Origin: Escherichia phage Es2
Sequence record: OR515477.1
Reading direction: 5' to 3' (one strand)
Length of the DNA stretch: 64,000 nt
A program made the translations under genes and the position numbers. A model generated the notes under the pieces. The model saw only the letters and a list, made by a program, of their open reading frames with translations. It made no database searches and was not told where the DNA came from. Positions 7,136 to 16,360 of the stretch are shown piece after piece. The first letter of the stretch is position 1. The number at the start of each line of letters is the position of its first letter.

Positions 7136-7593
7136 CAGCACTACAACAACTACAGAATTACTGGTTTGATAACCAATTTAACGATCTCTTTATCCAGTTG
7201 TTTGTCGAAACGAACGGACGCTTCAACTACCGATTCTTTAATAAGTTTCACGAAACAAAATTCTCCCATACAGAAATTAACGCAGCAATTCAGGACTTAA
7301 CAGGTTCTAAGGTAATTCAGTATCGTGAAGTAGACTTTACACCAGATTGTTTTGGATTTGAATTGTTTAAGAAAGCGTATAAATTTGGCAAGTTTGAGGA
7401 TGCTCGTCAATGGGTTCATGATTTCTGGTATAATACCGATATTGTTCCTAGTCGTGTGCTGATTCTTAACTGGATTGCTAAACAACACCCACCTAAAGCT
7501 CAATCGTCCTTCTTACCAACTGACACAGGAAACCTTTACCATGACAGAAAAGAAAAATCCATTGCTGGAGCAGATGAAGGAATGGGAGAGTAA
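7132..7593 (+). CDS. hypothetical early protein
   Basis: 153 aa ORF. Confidence 0.4.
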   Translation: MTALQQLQNYWFDNQFNDLFIQLFVETNGRFNYRFFNKFHETKFSHTEINAAIQDLTGSKVIQYREVDFTPDCFGFELFKKAYKFGKFEDARQWVHDFWYNTDIVPSRVLILNWIAKQHPPKAQSSFLPTDTGNLYHDRKEKSIAGADEGMGE

Positions 7594-8171: not shown

Positions 8172-8618
8172 ATGAGAGAAAAAGTAAATGAATTATTAAT
8201 CGAGGAAGCGAACAACTTCCCAATAAATAGGTTTATCAAATCGGATGGATCTATTAATAGAACTAAGATTAAGCAGTTACACCCCGACTTTCAACAAGAA
8301 GCGCTAAATCTTATATTTGTCAAGAAAGCTGTTGCAGCTCATGGGGTTTTCTTCGGGTATGAGCGTGTAAATTATAAGACAATGCAACAGCAGGTTGAGA
8401 TATATTGTCCAGACCACAAGGGTTATTACTGGCAAACTGCTAGATCTCATTTAGAAGGGCATGGTTGTCGACTGTGCGCACACAAGGTTGTGCAGCGTAT
8501 CACGGATTATGGAACTTATACCGTACCAGCATGTTATCATAAATTTGTAATTGACGATAACCATATAGTTTGGTATAATAAGTTTTCAAAGTTAAGAATG
8601 GAGATAAATAGTGAGTAG
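8172..8618 (+). CDS. zinc-finger-containing protein
   Basis: C-P-D-H...H-L-E-G-H-G-C-R-L-C-A-H cysteine/histidine cluster; start at 8172 (MREKVNELL), RBS unclear. Confidence 0.4.
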   Translation: MREKVNELLIEEANNFPINRFIKSDGSINRTKIKQLHPDFQQEALNLIFVKKAVAAHGVFFGYERVNYKTMQQQVEIYCPDHKGYYWQTARSHLEGHGCRLCAHKVVQRITDYGTYTVPACYHKFVIDDNHIVWYNKFSKLRMEINSE

Positions 8619-8901
8619 CTACATTGTATGGTCAAATCCATTAGCAGCACTTAGTAATAAATTATTTAAAACAGAATGGGGTAAAAACGAAATAGACTTA
8701 GGTAGTCGCCCAATACCAAATAAGCACCCATTAGTACCCGAGCTATATAGGGTAGTTATAAATGGCACAGAGTATTTGGTCGATAAATTTGACAGAAAAC
8801 GTTTACTAGAGGGTATCTACGATAATTCTATATCAATAAATGAATTAGTGGAACATGCCCAAATATATGATAAAAGCTGGATGTTAATATGGAAATCATA
8901 G
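8611..8901 (+). CDS. hypothetical early protein
   Basis: 96 aa ORF. Confidence 0.4.
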   Translation: MSSYIVWSNPLAALSNKLFKTEWGKNEIDLGSRPIPNKHPLVPELYRVVINGTEYLVDKFDRKRLLEGIYDNSISINELVEHAQIYDKSWMLIWKS

Positions 8902-9122
8902 CAATTATTTTAGTAGTTATGTTATTCATCGTAGTACTTGTATCTTTTGCTATTATGAGCAGAGCTAGAGAACTAGCAGAAGATCTAACAAAATTACGTG
9001 GTGAAGTGGCCGCCCTTAAACTACAGCGTGAGGCTTTAAAGTTGTTTGTAGTTCAGGGTAGCGTAGCTCATACACCAGAAGACTTCATCATATACCTCAA
9101 ACGCTATATGGGGATTAAATAA
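8889..9122 (+). CDS. small membrane-anchored coiled-coil protein
   Basis: 77 aa; N-terminal TM IIAIILVVMLFIVVLV then helical region. Confidence 0.35.
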   Translation: MEIIAIILVVMLFIVVLVSFAIMSRARELAEDLTKLRGEVAALKLQREALKLFVVQGSVAHTPEDFIIYLKRYMGIK

Positions 9123-9307
9123 TGGAAACACTTTTTCTTTTAATGCTCGTAGGTTCGTTAGTAGTTATATTAGCACTCCTATTAATCTGTAATATTCTTA
9201 ATAATAAGAATTTAGGACTAAAGTGTGAGAACCAAATCCTTAATCGTGAACTTGAGCAATATAACCTAGCAGCCCATAAACTATTAGACAAACTGGAGAA
9301 TAAATAA
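9122..9307 (+). CDS. small membrane-anchored coiled-coil protein
   Basis: 61 aa; same architecture as the preceding ORF. Confidence 0.35.
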   Translation: METLFLLMLVGSLVVILALLLICNILNNKNLGLKCENQILNRELEQYNLAAHKLLDKLENK

Positions 9308-9906
9308 TGTTCACACAACAACCTATTCAAGTAGTACCAGACCATGAACTGAACACATGGGATTATAGCTTTAAAGATTTAACTGCTACTGTACAATTCA
9401 AATCTATGAAGCTAACATTTGCACACACTGACCTTAGAGCATGTAAAGATCTTGAAGGTAAGCTAGAAGATGCTCGTAAGATTTTTGGCAAGGCTCGCAT
9501 CCCGGCTGATAACCTGATTAATGCACTGATCGATGCAGGATACAAACTCGTGAAGGCTGAGGTTAACCGTCCTAGTACTCCAGTGACTATTAGAGATCCG
9601 TGGCAATCAGGGCCAATCGCAATGCTAAATAAATCATCGGATTTGCACAATGTTCCATGTGGCGGTACGCTGTCGTCTAATCAATCCTATCGAGTTGGGG
9701 AAGATTATGGGCCTTCTATACAGTTGAAACATACTCAAGAAGCTCTTGAGTCTGACATGAAAAGCGTAGCACCGGGGAACTCTGGAGTTTCTAGGAATTC
9801 TGTCTATACTGTTCATTTAAACAATCCTGGTAATCATGGAAGTTTAGAGGATGCTATTATGGAGGCGTTGGGAGCTGTCATTAATGAAGATAAGAGAGGT
9901 AATTAA
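9307..9906 (+). CDS. hypothetical early protein
   Basis: 199 aa ORF; ATGA overlap with upstream gene. Confidence 0.45.
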   Translation: MFTQQPIQVVPDHELNTWDYSFKDLTATVQFKSMKLTFAHTDLRACKDLEGKLEDARKIFGKARIPADNLINALIDAGYKLVKAEVNRPSTPVTIRDPWQSGPIAMLNKSSDLHNVPCGGTLSSNQSYRVGEDYGPSIQLKHTQEALESDMKSVAPGNSGVSRNSVYTVHLNNPGNHGSLEDAIMEALGAVINEDKRGN

Positions 9907-11269: not shown

Positions 11270-11560
11270 TTTCTTCTAGACTCCTAAGTTTCTAGGAATA
11301 GTTGAGCACTAACTCTAGAGTTTACATTAAACTTTAAATCTGTTTCTCTAGTCAACTCAGGCGGTTTTCATATTCCTAGAAACTCTAGCAATAGGCGGTT
11401 AATACAGGGCGGTTTTAGGGAGGGCGGTTATTTCTAGAAGACATTTTTTGAAAACACATTTCTAGAAATTACTGTCGTATTTGCACACTGCATTTCTAGA
11501 AATTTATGGTCGGATTTGCACAAACGCCTAAGTTTTTAGGAACATATAATCTCTTGAAAA
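11270..11560. repeat. TTCTAGAA palindrome cluster and CCTAAGTTTYTAGGA repeats
   Basis: At least 4 copies of ATTTCTAGAA(A) and 4 copies of the ctRAGTTTYTAGRA element. Confidence 0.6.
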
Positions 11561-12080
11561 TGGCAGCATTATTTCGGGCCGAAGGCCCGTGATTGCCTGA
11601 GTTTTTAGAGCCACAAGAATTTTCACTTGTCAAGCTATTTTGCCCCATTTAGCAAATAAAATTTTACTTTATCTCCTCTAATCTCAAATTAACCCAAATC
11701 TTCTCAACTCTTCCCCAAAATACCCGCAAATCAGGTGCTCCGCACCAAACATGCGCCTCTCCCACAGTTCCCCCAAAATTTCTCTCGCTCTCTCAACTTC
11801 TCCCCAAACATACACAATCACACACCCTCCAATCGAAGCCACAAAAATCTTGTCGGATTCGCACATCTTAATCCTAGAAAAACCGTGTCGGATTTGCACA
11901 TACCCCACAGGATTCGAACGCAGTTCGAGATTGCTGGAGTTTTTAGGAAAATTCATTGTCGGATTCGCACACTATAAAAATTTTTCGGGTCGGATTTGCA
12001 CACTACCAAAAATTGTCGGATTCGCACATACACGCCCGCACGTAACACCCGTGGAGCAATGTCGGATTTGCACAAAAGCG
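11470..12080. repeat. dispersed 14-mer repeat GTCGGATT(T/C)GCACA, about 8 copies
   Basis: Copies near 11476, 11508, 11852, 11886, 11958, 11988, 12013 and 12058 with irregular spacing. Confidence 0.65.
11690..11830. repeat. C/A-rich low-complexity tract with CCCCAAAA-type repeats
   Basis: Strong strand compositional bias; repeated tCCCCAAAa units. Confidence 0.5.
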
Positions 12081-12099
12081 CAGGGCAATTGCCCTGCGC

Positions 12100-12310
12100 T
12101 AAATGAGAATAAAAATAAGAATCATTCTCATTTAGAAAGCGGAATGAGAATGATAATAATTCGCATTTAGAAAGCGAAATGAGAATCAATCTCATTTAAG
12201 AACGGAAACGAAAATTATTCAGGAAGTGAAACGATTCTCATTTAGAAAGTGGAATGATTCTCATTTAGAAAGTGGAATGCAAATGATAATGATTCGCATT
12301 TAAGAATGGA
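12100..12310. repeat. tandem array of ATTCTCATTTAGAAAG(Y)GGAATGA units with embedded inverted repeats
   Basis: About 5 direct repeat units plus AAATGAGAAT/ATTCTCATTT palindromic cores. Confidence 0.65.
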
Positions 12311-12333
12311 AGTGAGAAACACTGTTATTTAAG

Positions 12334-12415
12334 TTATCCACAGACTTATCAACAGCACGATTTGACTTGACAAAATTCTAGCCATTTTGAGGCGTTATCA
12401 ACAGACTTATCAACA
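12334..12415. promoter_or_regulatory. cluster of DnaA-box-like sites
   Basis: TTATCCACA (12334-12342) matches the DnaA box consensus TTATNCACA; TTATCAACA at 12346, 12395 and 12407. Confidence 0.45.
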
Positions 12416-12423
12416 GCTTATCC

Positions 12424-12443
12424 TACTGTATAAATATACAGTA
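12424..12443. promoter_or_regulatory. LexA (SOS) box-like palindrome
   Basis: TACTGTATAAATATACAGTA, CTGT-N8-ACAG, 18 of 20 match to TACTGTATATATATACAGTA. Confidence 0.45.
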
Positions 12444-12636
12444 TTCCTATGCAGTGAATAATTCTAATATACAGCTAAAACGCTCTCAAACGCATTCTAA
12501 CGCGTTTAATTTTGGTGGGGATACTAAAACACGGGCAAAATTGGAGGAGGCTTAGAAATTAGTTAGCTCGCTAACGATCACACAAGGCGACACGTAACAT
12601 CCTAACCATTAGCAGGCTAACCATCGCGGGCGCGGT

Positions 12637-12659
12637 CAAATGAGAATGATTCTCATTTG
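12637..12659. repeat. perfect 22 bp palindrome
   Basis: CAAATGAGAATGATTCTCATTTG, same core as the 12.1-12.3 kb array. Confidence 0.55.
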
Positions 12660-12809
12660 AGAATTGGGGGCACTTCCTGATAGTTGCGCCCCGTGATTAT
12701 TACAGTAGTGGGCAACCTTTACGCTTTGCCCATTCCCGCCACTCATCTTGATGTCTAGACTTGCGACGGCGTACTAAAAACCATTTATACCAGTGATTAA
12801 ACCATCGTT

Positions 12810-13013
12810 TCATAAATCCTCCTCCGGTAGTCGGTGCGTGATTTTTTCCTCCTCTCCGTAGGAATCCACTAAATGCTGATAATAACCATCGTGATCATAA
12901 ATCACTTTATCATATTCGCCACGCTCGACCGCTTGTCGGTTTTCCGGCGTATCTGGCACGTAAAAAACATCAACCATTGTACTGATTTTGGTTACAACAA
13001 TTTTATTGCTCAT
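12810..13013 (-). CDS. hypothetical small acidic protein (67 aa)
   Basis: RBS GGAG upstream of ATG; inside higher-GC cassette. Confidence 0.4.
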   Translation of the reverse strand: MSNKIVVTKISTMVDVFYVPDTPENRQAVERGEYDKVIYDHDGYYQHLVDSYGEEEKITHRLPEEDL

Positions 13014-13038
13014 AATAACGCTCCGTTATTATATAATC

Positions 13039-13383
13039 TCATTGTGCCACCTTTCGAAACGCTGTTTCAATACTTTCCGCAGTTGACTGAATATACGCGC
13101 CTTTCATGATCAGGCGCTCAGTGCATACCTTACGGAAGATATTAATAAAATCATCTTCATTTTCTGCAATTAACGCTTCACCCATAACCTGAACGTCACA
13201 AGATGCAAAGGTCAAAAATTGAAACGCTAGTTCACGGGCAACGACCTCATTGATTTTATAATGCGCCTTGCCCTCATAAATATTAATAACGCCCTTATAT
13301 GTTGGGGAAAGCTGATTTAAATAATTTGCTAATAATGCTGGGCGGCAATTAGCAATAAAACGATTGCCTTCATAAATAACCAT
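13039..13383 (-). CDS. hypothetical protein (114 aa)
   Basis: Start set at the ATG with RBS GGGAGG 6 nt upstream (MVIYEGNRF); ORF track start is 13398. Confidence 0.4.
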   Translation of the reverse strand: MVIYEGNRFIANCRPALLANYLNQLSPTYKGVINIYEGKAHYKINEVVARELAFQFLTFASCDVQVMGEALIAENEDDFINIFRKVCTERLIMKGAYIQSTAESIETAFRKVAQ

Positions 13384-13510
13384 TTGACAGCCTCCCAATT
13401 AGATAGCCAGATAATAACATAAAGATCCCCAATGAAAGGGGGTCATTTTTAAATAGGGTGGCGGTAAAACCGCCAGCCATTGCAAGGATGATAACAATAA
13501 CGCTTTTCAT
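13367..13510 (-). CDS. small two-segment hydrophobic peptide (47 aa), not in ORF track
   Basis: MKSVIVIILAMAGGFTATLF...LSLGIFMLLSGYLIG; ATGA overlap with upstream stop. Confidence 0.3.
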
Positions 13511-13719
13511 AGTACCCCACGAAACGCAGCGTAAAAGGTGGCAAAATGTTTAACTGTTTCAGCTATCACGTTGCCGCGCTTGTCAAATTTCTTTTCTGTA
13601 ACACGAAAGGCATTCTTATTACGTGCTACATATTCAATTTTACAATCTTCCCGCTCGAACGTGTTAACATCCACCAGCTTAAAGCCTTTCGAACGTGCAA
13701 GAGAAACATTGCGGATCAT
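13507..13719 (-). CDS. hypothetical basic protein (70 aa)
   Basis: RBS AGGAGAA upstream of ATG. Confidence 0.4.
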   Translation of the reverse strand: MIRNVSLARSKGFKLVDVNTFEREDCKIEYVARNKNAFRVTEKKFDKRGNVIAETVKHFATFYAAFRGVL

Positions 13720-13721
13720 TT

Positions 13722-13871
13722 TTATTCTCCTTTACTAGTCATGCAGCCCAGCAGATAAGAAAATGCAGCGATACCCGCGCCAATAATAACCGCGTGAACA
13801 CCGAAAGCTATTGCAAAAAGGGATAAAATAGCGCCCAAGATACCTGCTAGAATAGCTCGAAAAATAACCAT
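13722..13871 (-). CDS. small two-segment hydrophobic peptide (49 aa), not in ORF track
   Basis: MVIFRAILAGILGAILSLFAIAFGVHAVIIGAGIAAFSYLLG; RBS AGGAGA 7 nt upstream. Confidence 0.3.
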   Translation of the reverse strand: MVIFRAILAGILGAILSLFAIAFGVHAVIIGAGIAAFSYLLGCMTSKGE

Positions 13872-13917
13872 TTTCATTCTCCTAGTTTGCGGGGCGAAAG
13901 TAACGCCCCGTTATTAC

Positions 13918-14158
13918 TTACATTAAAACAATTTTTGCCGCTTGTTTTTTAGTACAGTGTTCCGCTTTCAGGGTATCCAGCAAAAAGCCGGCCGTTTGCT
14001 GATCGATTTTATCGGCGTTGTATAGTTCTTGGATGGTGTTATAAGTTTTAGCAATGCCGAACTCCTGCACCATTTCATGAATGATGGCGCGATTAGATAC
14101 CCAGCCTTGCGCGGTGAACAGATGACTAGCAGAAGAATAAGCAACCATTTTAAACCTC
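13918..14158 (-). CDS. hypothetical protein (80 aa)
   Basis: Start set at the ATG with RBS GGAGG upstream (MVAYSSASHLF); ORF track start is 14181. Confidence 0.4.
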
Positions 14159-14266
14159 CAAATTTTTGGGAAAATTTTCAACCGTCCTCAAACGGTGTAA
14201 AGGCATTATAACAAAAAAGGTCGCCATAAAAGGCGACCTTTACAAAACTTTACATTAGATTATTTA

Positions 14267-15277
14267 TTACTCGTTTTCGGTGTTAGTGGTAAAAGTAGAA
14301 ATATCGATACCTTTTACCATTTCATCAATCATTTCAGCGATGTTAAAACTTTGCACCATTTCCAACATTGCCGCTTCCATAGCTGCCCCTGCTACCGCTT
14401 TCGCTTTCTGGTTGCTTGGGGCATACTGGTCAACCGCTACGCTCAGCAGGTTGGCAATTACTACTCGACCGATAGGCGTATCAATATAACCTTTAATCAT
14501 GAACGGTGCTTTTTTAGCCGCTACTTTCGTAATTTGAGTCAGTGCAATTTTACCCGCTTCCAGTTTTGCAGCGTTTACAACGGCGGATTTATTAGCGGCA
14601 ACGATGTTAGCAATCTTGGTCATGGTATTTTTTCCTTTATTTTCAGTGATTTGAGTATTAACGCTTTGAGTGTTAGAATTTACAGCATGGTTTTCTACGC
14701 TGTCAATAATCTGATCTTCATCTTTCCAGAAAGAAAAACCAGCGCTTTCTATATCCCCATCATAAATATACGGGTATAGCTCCCGTGGTAACAAAAAATT
14801 ACCGTCGCCATCAAAAGCCATTATACCGGTATATTGAGATCCGTCGTTATCCGGCTTATACCATCCAGCGGGTAAATACTTCCAGATAACATCTAAAAAT
14901 CCCTCAATGCTAGAAAGTCCATTTATCAGATCAAGCCCAATAAGCTCAAAACCATTTATATTAAATGATTGACGGCCTGAATTGCTATGATACGCAACAA
15001 TAGTATTGCCCTGCGCAACAATAAAATCGGTATCCGGCCCCGCTCCCCTGCCCGTAAAGATATGGCAATCCCGATTATGTAAAACTAGCGTTGCCCCTTG
15101 CTTATATAAGGGTAGAAAACTATCCATATCATAGGCGTCATATTCATCAAAAAAGTTTTGATGAATAGTTTCAACCTTGTTAATAAAATGTTTAATGCTG
15201 GTTGACTTGCTACCGTCCAGCAGGTTACGCAATGCACCTTTTAAGACGGTTGCGTTATCTGGTTTATAAAGCCTCAT
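14267..15277 (-). CDS. hypothetical protein (336 aa), first gene of the inverted-repeat-flanked cassette
   Basis: Strong RBS GAGGAGG 7 nt upstream; Gly/Asp-rich N-terminal half and Ala/Lys-rich helical C-terminal half; no recognised catalytic motif. Confidence 0.5.
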   Translation of the reverse strand: MRLYKPDNATVLKGALRNLLDGSKSTSIKHFINKVETIHQNFFDEYDAYDMDSFLPLYKQGATLVLHNRDCHIFTGRGAGPDTDFIVAQGNTIVAYHSNSGRQSFNINGFELIGLDLINGLSSIEGFLDVIWKYLPAGWYKPDNDGSQYTGIMAFDGDGNFLLPRELYPYIYDGDIESAGFSFWKDEDQIIDSVENHAVNSNTQSVNTQITENKGKNTMTKIANIVAANKSAVVNAAKLEAGKIALTQITKVAAKKAPFMIKGYIDTPIGRVVIANLLSVAVDQYAPSNQKAKAVAGAAMEAAMLEMVQSFNIAEMIDEMVKGIDISTFTTNTENE

Positions 15278-15841: not shown

Positions 15842-16360
15842 ATGCCTAAATATAAACATATAGATTATGACCTTTTTAATAGTTACTTTTATTATGATGA
15901 AACATCGTTATCATTTTTACGCTGGCGAGAAGATCATGCCATCGCTGGTGGTTTAAATGGTAATTATTGGCAAGTTGAATTATTAGATAAAGGACAATTC
16001 AAAGTACATAGAATTATTTTTTGTATAATGAATGGTGGTATAGATAGCGAGCTAATGATTGATCATATTGATCGTAACCCCCGTAATAATAACATTTGGA
16101 ATCTTCGCGCGGTTGATAGTTCCCAGAATAACTATAATAAGACTCCTAGTGAGTATGAAAACTATAAGCGTGCTAATGGTATCCCTAGAAACATTTACGT
16201 TAATAAAATTCGCCCCCGTGATAGTTTCGGGCGTGATTATTTAACTGCTCAAATTAAGAATCCTATTACTAACAAGCGTGTTAGTAAGTCTGGTTATGAT
16301 TTACAAGAGTTATTATTATGGCTTGAAGCTAAAAAAGCTGAATTCGGAATTGTCAATTAA
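15842..16360 (+). CDS. HNH homing endonuclease (HNH_3-type)
   Basis: IDHIDRNPRNNNIWNLR motif; sits in an AT-rich islet within the higher-GC region. Confidence 0.6.
   Translation: MPKYKHIDYDLFNSYFYYDETSLSFLRWREDHAIAGGLNGNYWQVELLDKGQFKVHRIIFCIMNGGIDSELMIDHIDRNPRNNNIWNLRAVDSSQNNYNKTPSEYENYKRANGIPRNIYVNKIRPRDSFGRDYLTAQIKNPITNKRVSKSGYDLQELLLWLEAKKAEFGIVN

Follow-up and report, generated by a model that had tools for sequence, protein, structure and literature searches.

The minus strand of Escherichia phage Es2 between positions 12700 and 15277 (sequence record OR515477.1; the window, i.e. the whole stretch of DNA analysed, comprises 64,000 nucleotides (nt)) carries the gene of a 336-amino-acid (aa) protein, Gp011, followed by a series of very small genes. 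By homology, this region corresponds to the right-hand operon in the first-step-transfer (pre-early) DNA of T5-like phages. We assign a probability of roughly 80 % to the overall reading as a host-takeover operon with the layout proposed in Table 1 and the roles inferred below for peptide 2 and Gp011. As such, the cluster is an instance of an operon already described in phage T5, for which a toxicity map and one mechanism, that of protein 015, have been published. What goes beyond this textbook picture is an accessory membrane peptide (peptide 2), the variable peptide slots to which it belongs, and a two-module, possibly nested Gp011.

The assignment is based on position, orthology and gene order. 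The window is Tequintavirus DNA, and in a DNA comparison with phage records the 3.1-kb region matched 524 entries, nearly all of them from Markadamsvirinae, T5-like phages of Salmonella, Escherichia and Klebsiella. Its proteins 011, 012, 013, 014, 015 and 017 have one-to-one orthologues, in the same order and with overall protein identities of 65-100 %, in the pre-early right arm of T5 (T5.011-T5.017, NC_005859 6495-9157), which shares genome position and orientation with the window cluster. In annotated records, this DNA forms part of the terminal repeat; it is flanked by the hegG/divergent-promoter region on one side and by the repeat-rich injection-stop region on the other. During infection, the terminal-repeat (first-step-transfer) DNA is injected first and initially alone, and from this position we infer pre-early expression of the window cluster. 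In the related phage Bas33, transcription of the region is restricted to the pre-early phase. Both T5 and the window possess a terminator after 011. They differ in that T5.016 has no counterpart in the window, as in most relatives, whereas peptide 2 is found in the window and not in T5: the 014-015 junction is a 1-nt gap in T5 and accommodates the 46-aa peptide in the window. Moreover, T5 013 contains a 10-residue loop insertion that the window protein (peptide 1) lacks.

Table 1. Features of the cluster, with protein identity to the T5 orthologues (positions refer to the whole window or, where marked aa, to Gp011).
Feature	Position	Strand	Identity to T5	Remarks
011 homologue, '37 kD pre-early protein'	14267-15277	minus	90 % (T5.011)	336 aa; GAGGAGG 9 nt ahead of ATG
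Gp011 N-terminal alpha/beta domain	aa 1-190			AlphaFold2
Gp011 disordered N/T/Q-rich linker	aa 196-215			AlphaFold2
Gp011 helical C-terminal module (C-module)	aa 219-336 (218-334 in the model)			AlphaFold2
Candidate internal signals of gene 011	14621-14706	minus		promoter scan and alignment
Promoter-like hexamers TTGACA and TAAATT	14706-14701 and 14682-14677	minus		18-nt spacer
Shine-Dalgarno-like AAAGGAA	14638-14632	minus		
In-frame ATG	14623-14621	minus		opens C-module
Intrinsic terminator after 011	14241-14216	minus		10-bp stem and T-tract (scan)
Extended -10 promoter element TGtTATAAT	14213-14205	minus		read from sequence, directly after terminator
012 homologue	13918-14148	minus	84 % (T5.012)	76 aa, soluble; GGAGG-preceded ATG; phrog_5145
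Peptide 1 (013 homologue)	13722-13871	minus	65-67 %, loop indel (T5.013)	49 aa; phrog_5607
014 homologue	13507-13719	minus	100 % (T5.014)	70 aa, basic, isoelectric point (pI) 10
Peptide 2	13370-13510	minus		46 aa, accessory, no T5 counterpart; phrog_19184
015 homologue	13039-13383	minus	93 %, 114/114 residues (T5.015)	114 aa, Ung-dependent abasic-site nickase by homology
017 homologue	12810-13013	minus	90 % (T5.017)	67 aa, acidic, pI 4.6; phrog_6973
Extra open reading frame	12700-12813	minus		37 aa, basic (pI 11.3), Trp-rich; GGAGGAGG ahead of ATG

The takeover assignment draws on experiments with the T5 orthologues. When T5.002-T5.017 were cloned singly, 008, 011 and 015 were toxic, and T5.015 was shown to bind Ung and to nick Ung-generated abasic sites (Mahata et al. 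2021, PMC8201957). A second study found dmp, A1, hdi, hegG, 011, 013 and 015 toxic (Annor et al., bioRxiv 2026). Among the toxic pre-early proteins of that study, two transmembrane domains were predicted for 013 only, and its expression resulted in shrunken and lysed cells, lysis being partial and affecting a fraction of the cells. Expression of 011, a protein said to 'resist functional predictions', caused uneven nucleoid staining, and a recoded 011 could be cloned, whereas the wild-type gene could not. T5.012 was reported to be non-toxic in both studies. The expression tests suggested in an earlier note on this DNA, which was made from the sequence alone, have thus largely been published for T5. 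That note had offered toxin-antitoxin, holin/antiholin or membrane-depolarising host-takeover modules as comparisons. The last of the three came closest: orthology with T5.011-T5.017 and the published toxicity bear out the takeover part, to which the partial lysis caused by the two-transmembrane T5 Gp013 contributes, and membrane depolarisation is a putative effect.

Several observations weigh against this picture. Toxicity of 013 was seen in one study (Annor et al.) and not in the other (Mahata 2021). T5 grows on laboratory E. coli without any of the genes 011-017, and a T5 mutant deleted for hegG-017 is viable and releases progeny with the latency of its dmp-minus parent. Since 011-017 are dispensable in the laboratory, any takeover role would be accessory. 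Finally, the RNA-seq table of Bas33 lists almost no counts for a 126-nt gene in the slot between 014 and 015, which is probably a counting artefact of a short, overlapping feature.

For the 114-aa protein, a function can be assigned. It aligns with T5.015 over its full length without any notable difference and is under strong constraint, with a ratio of non-synonymous to synonymous substitution rates (dN/dS) of 0.04-0.07. By homology, the 015 homologue would be a host-DNA nickase exploiting Ung, the biochemistry being known for T5 only. The neighbouring 014 gene differs from its T5 counterpart by 16 synonymous and 0 non-synonymous changes. In RefSeq NC_005859 and in PHROG family phrog_4227, it is the 70-aa T5.014 homologue that is labelled 'endonuclease nicking abasic sites generated by Ung', and UniRef attaches an AP-endonuclease name to the 114-aa T5.015. 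A confusion of numbering seems to have put the nickase label on the 70-aa protein: a different T5 record names it 'ORF015', and the list of Mahata et al. uses T5.0xx names. Automated pipelines have spread the apparently misplaced name to many phage genomes.

Sequence and homology suggest that host RNA polymerase would transcribe the cluster as two units. The division results from the intrinsic terminator after 011, annotated at the same position in T5 (7534-7559) and BF23, together with the extended -10 element, which lies where a pre-early promoter has been predicted in BF23. Unit 1 would consist of gene 011 and stop at the terminator. Unit 2 would start from the extended -10 promoter and comprise 012, 013, 014, peptide 2, 015, 017 and the 37-aa open reading frame (ORF), with translation coupled tightly or by overlap. 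ATGA overlaps connect 014 with peptide 2 and 017 with the 37-aa ORF, peptide 2 and the 114-aa gene overlap by 14 nt, and the Shine-Dalgarno sequence of 014 lies inside the last codons of peptide 1. Peptide 1 is not ATGA-coupled; its start is preceded by a 46-nt gap with a hairpin, and a 2-nt gap follows its end. The hairpin, located at 13889-13911 between 012 and peptide 1, is G+C-rich (GGGGCG-ttacttt-CGCCCC), has no T-tract on the coding strand and appeared terminator-like in our scan only on the opposite strand. It could serve as an RNA stability or processing element or as a partial attenuator. At the distal end, the 37-aa ORF is followed by a hairpin at 12692-12667. It is 81-95 % conserved in T5 (81 %; unannotated there), MM-1 and SIA3lw with dN/dS values of 0.07-0.67, and is absent from BF23, KPP2018 and SP76, in which 017 ends three residues earlier.

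This map refines rather than replaces the one in the earlier note. The strong ribosome-binding site described for the 336-aa gene was confirmed. From the downstream proteins listed as 80, 70, 114 and 67 aa, the last three sizes are correct, and the first shrinks to 76 aa if translation begins at the GGAGG-preceded ATG, as in T5.012. One of the two interspersed peptides had been located exactly, and the other, given as 13367-13510, was 3 nt off. ATGA-type coupling, proposed for both, applies to the 014/peptide 2 junction and not to peptide 1. The peptides are 'unannotated' only in a relative sense, as the T5 reference lists T5.013 and peptide 2 has been called in Es2 (WNL62824.1). The 37-aa ORF, the terminator and the extended -10 element are additions to that description.

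According to their substitution patterns, peptides 1 and 2 are real genes. Among Tequintavirus and Epseptimavirus relatives, dN/dS was 0.03-0.26 for peptide 1 and 0.10-0.39 for peptide 2, with one pair at 0.62. Both peptides match PHROG families of unknown function. The frame of peptide 2 is kept at full length down to 48-54 % identity, with an invariant GGF...DP..LG...GYL.GRL pattern, and its exact sequence, like that of the 114-aa protein, is found in Escherichia phage Es2. Two hydrophobic segments, as the earlier note had claimed for each peptide, are evident in peptide 2, where residues 1-20 and 24-41 surround a conserved K-x-D-P turn (grand average of hydropathy (GRAVY) 1.10). Peptide 1, in contrast, scores as a single unbroken hydrophobic stretch in a hydropathy scan (residues 1-46; GRAVY 1.58). 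Its division into two segments is read from the two-transmembrane annotation of T5.013 and from a polar insertion in the middle of related proteins: in the 013 proteins of T5 and DT57C a polar loop is inserted after the position of His26. The two peptides are not demonstrably paralogous, with an hhalign probability of 28 % in a profile comparison. We propose that 013 and peptide 2 are made within the first minutes after infection and form hairpins in the inner membrane, peptide 2 being a second, independently acquired micro-protein of this kind that shares the early time window of 013. Their effect would be a change in membrane integrity or the blockage of a process at the membrane, and they would belong to a swappable set rather than to the lysis machinery. 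For peptide 2, the most likely role would be to tune membrane permeability or to block a membrane-based function of the host or a competitor, rather than to time lysis.

A related explanation sees in the small membrane peptides factors of superinfection exclusion or anti-defence instead of general permeabilisers, directed against the inner-membrane DNA entry of competing phages or against a membrane-bound abortive-infection effector. Closely related phages differ in whether such peptides are present, missing or replaced, as is usual for accessory genes in an arms race; the peptides are also dispensable in the laboratory host, and they would be made before the remaining genome enters, when such factors should be most useful. 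However, searches against Pfam, PHROG and PADLOC revealed no homology to a known exclusion or anti-defence protein, and lysis on overexpression is the only phenotype reported for 013. That the known exclusion factor of T5, the lipoprotein Llp, has its gene elsewhere in the T5 genome also speaks against this explanation. On balance, we consider an exclusion or anti-defence function unlikely.

It is far less probable still that the peptides form a holin/antiholin or lysis-timing module, in which two-segment peptides make holes and their small neighbours regulate them. Class II holins and pinholins such as S68 of phage 21 share with the peptides the small size and the hairpin of two transmembrane segments (shown for peptide 2, deduced by family comparison for peptide 1), and expression of T5.013 lyses some cells. 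In addition, the M-K-M double start of peptide 1, found in the window and in BF23 and created by an alternative upstream ATG at 13877 that would yield a 51-aa product, recalls lambda S107/S105. Yet the Shine-Dalgarno sequence abuts this first ATG, which is missing in most relatives, where a single start is found. The genes are pre-early and not part of a late lysis cassette, there is no endolysin or spanin in the operon and no lysin domain in its ORFs, and the peptides end in ...CMTSKGE (peptide 1) and ...GRLSNGYL (peptide 2) rather than in the charged hydrophilic C-terminal tail of a holin. The T5 mutant without hegG-017 still completes infection with the latency of its parent; the block is dispensable, and no loss of lysis has been reported.

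Equally improbable are toxin-antitoxin cassettes in which the toxic 011, 013 and 015 would be neutralised by the adjacent 012, 014 and 017. Toxic and non-toxic genes do alternate in the published screens, and translational coupling is tight. However, none of the small proteins had a Pfam match above threshold, PADLOC detected no toxin-antitoxin or defence system, and nothing we found points to toxin and antidote partners among these genes. The host partner Ung, and not a missing antidote, accounts for the toxicity of 015, and a virulent phage kills its host anyway. The least probable explanation of all, that both small ORFs are untranslated chance frames in intergenic spacers, is prompted by their very short length, the lack of peptide 2 in the T5 reference and its missing annotation in many records, and is already largely refuted by the strong excess of synonymous over non-synonymous changes across genera, by the preserved frame and GGF...DP...GYL.GRL motif of peptide 2, and by the ribosome-binding sites and start/stop overlaps.

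Returning to the peptides as a swappable membrane set, their distribution among relatives fits an exchange at defined places. Among phage-collection records, 436 contain 014, 367 contain peptide-1 DNA (counted by DNA search) and 159 contain peptide 2, recognised down to 48 % identity. Ten loci were compared at the 014|015 junction. A peptide of the peptide-2 type occupies this slot in the window, KPP2018, BF23, DT57C, poul149 and SP76, and likewise in Epseptimaviruses. T5, SIA3lw and MM-1 lack peptide 2; the slot is empty in the first two and harbours an unrelated 40-aa peptide with one hydrophobic segment in MM-1. Searches by tblastn with peptide 1 and with this 40-aa peptide gave no matches, probably owing to masking by the low-complexity filter. 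STWB21 (2382-2641) combines such a 40-aa one-segment peptide with a TTG-started homologue of peptide 2 and is devoid of 013 at the usual place. Phages that have lost 013 may therefore still keep one or more small membrane peptides. The 015|017 slot is equally variable and contains T5.016, a 35-aa or 52-aa hydrophobic peptide, proteins of 65-70 aa, or nothing. Peptide 2 would thus occupy one of two slots around 015 in which T5-like phages swap tiny membrane peptides.

The 336-aa Gp011 had been described in the earlier note as a protein without any recognisable motif, and this still holds. The only Pfam match is DUF7566 (E=1.4e-113; score 380 bits, gathering threshold 27, alignment over residues 2-336), accompanied by phrog_4263. 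The fold search recommended at the time has now been run on a confident AlphaFold2 model computed with an alignment of relatives (mean pLDDT, the predicted local confidence score, 81; above 90 in the C-module). Foldseek found no match in the PDB at E ≤0.001, a viral fold library returned only uncharacterised phage proteins, and a sequence-profile search of the PDB yielded nothing meaningful. Homology to a structural or metabolic protein, which would have spoken against the proposed nature of the cluster, was not found in Pfam, PHROG or fold searches. The homologues in phiLLS and JLBYU43 are labelled 'DNA N-6-adenine methyltransferase', a name for which domain searches on the window protein and its relatives provided no support. 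In MM-1 (8508-9517) the homologue is split by annotation into two ORFs of 259 and 77 aa, so that the C-module there may contain a frameshift or a sequencing error.

Structure, substitution rates and relatives all point to a modular Gp011. The N-domain evolves about 8 times faster than the C-module (dN/dS 0.24 and 0.03, respectively). When 1.84 billion cluster representatives were searched exhaustively, they yielded 686 relatives (clusters at 50 % identity), with total lengths of 110-544 aa, most of which match only residues ~200-335 and carry other N-termini. A profile search of a 5.8-billion-protein set with a diverse alignment returned T5-like sequences only. Within a sample of 147 relatives, the N-terminal part was a HIRAN domain in 22 and an ExoX-like domain in 1, and stand-alone versions of the C-module with 121-122 aa exist as well. 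One HIRAN-fused relative lies on a 52-kb contig amid a long run of small genes of unknown function. The N-domain of Gp011 itself is not a divergent HIRAN domain, as it had a profile-profile probability of 0.05 % and no Pfam HIRAN match. Gp011 would accordingly combine a fast-evolving N-domain, a disordered linker and a highly conserved C-module common to a large phage family, the latter being a shared functional or targeting unit. Judging indirectly from the nucleoid phenotype and the HIRAN-fused relatives, the target of Gp011 is probably the nucleoid or a host factor associated with DNA.

The C-module may in addition be produced on its own. Candidate signals inside gene 011 (Table 1) could give rise to a separate product of ~118 aa from an internal start. 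The C-module begins with a conserved AANK motif, and 142 of 147 relatives have a methionine 3-21 residues ahead of it. In every T5-like locus that was compared, as well as in the distant relative with a HIRAN fusion, AAAGGAA precedes the ATG of this methionine by 5-9 nt. The hexamers, the Shine-Dalgarno sequence and the ATG are conserved in T5, SIA3lw, MM-1, BF23, KPP2018, SP76 and STWB21, with variants of the -10-like hexamer in SP76 (TACAAT) and STWB21 (TAAACT). Both hexamers are kept in Tequintavirus and Epseptimavirus although the encoded residues differ, and in the T5-like phages the promoter-like site is located 45-85 nt upstream of the internal ATG. A nested product would also fit the reported failure to clone wild-type 011. 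Two findings weaken the case for an internal promoter: it corresponds to a 10/12 match to the consensus, and such matches are common in the region (20 against 10.8 expected); moreover, the distant HIRAN-fused relative has none.

Nested or internally initiated genes occur in other phages, for instance lambda C/Nu3 and T7 gene 4A/4B. The likeness to 011 is one of gene layout only, i.e. an in-frame methionine and the Shine-Dalgarno-like AAAGGAA. That the C-module of Gp011 is autonomous and separately produced and, at the same time, the gaps flanking 015 are exchange slots for membrane micro-proteins is a tentative proposal, possible in our view but, as a whole, rather doubtful.

The surroundings of the cluster resemble T5 as well. 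On the plus strand at 15842-16360 lies an HNH homing-endonuclease gene of the hegG type, of the same size as T5 hegG (172 aa). The hegG gene has been reported in less than 15 % of Demerecviridae, and its product is toxic on expression. Downstream of the cluster, positions 11280-12670 contain dense arrays of direct and inverted repeats, including 7 copies of the AAATGAGAATCATTCTCATTT type and 7 copies of TGTCGGATT(T/C)GCACA, and pairs of DnaA-box-like TTATCCACA / TTATCAACA are found at 12333-12417. These arrays correspond to the injection-stop-signal region of T5. The window contains no tRNA genes.

In T5-like phages, peptide 2 represents a conserved membrane peptide beyond the reach of the T5 expression screens, being absent from the model phage. 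If the slots are what we propose, these phages would possess a small mobile arsenal for use at the inner membrane during the first minutes after infection. For Gp011, the head-plus-module build and the HIRAN-fused relatives suggest concrete constructs for its study. Should the nested product exist, the C-module would be both fused to interchangeable N-terminal heads, of unknown fold in T5-like phages and HIRAN DNA-end binders elsewhere, and made alone. Its separate production would account for the contrast between wild-type 011, which resists cloning, and the clonable recoded copy, and toxicity or targeting towards the host nucleoid would reside in the C-module.

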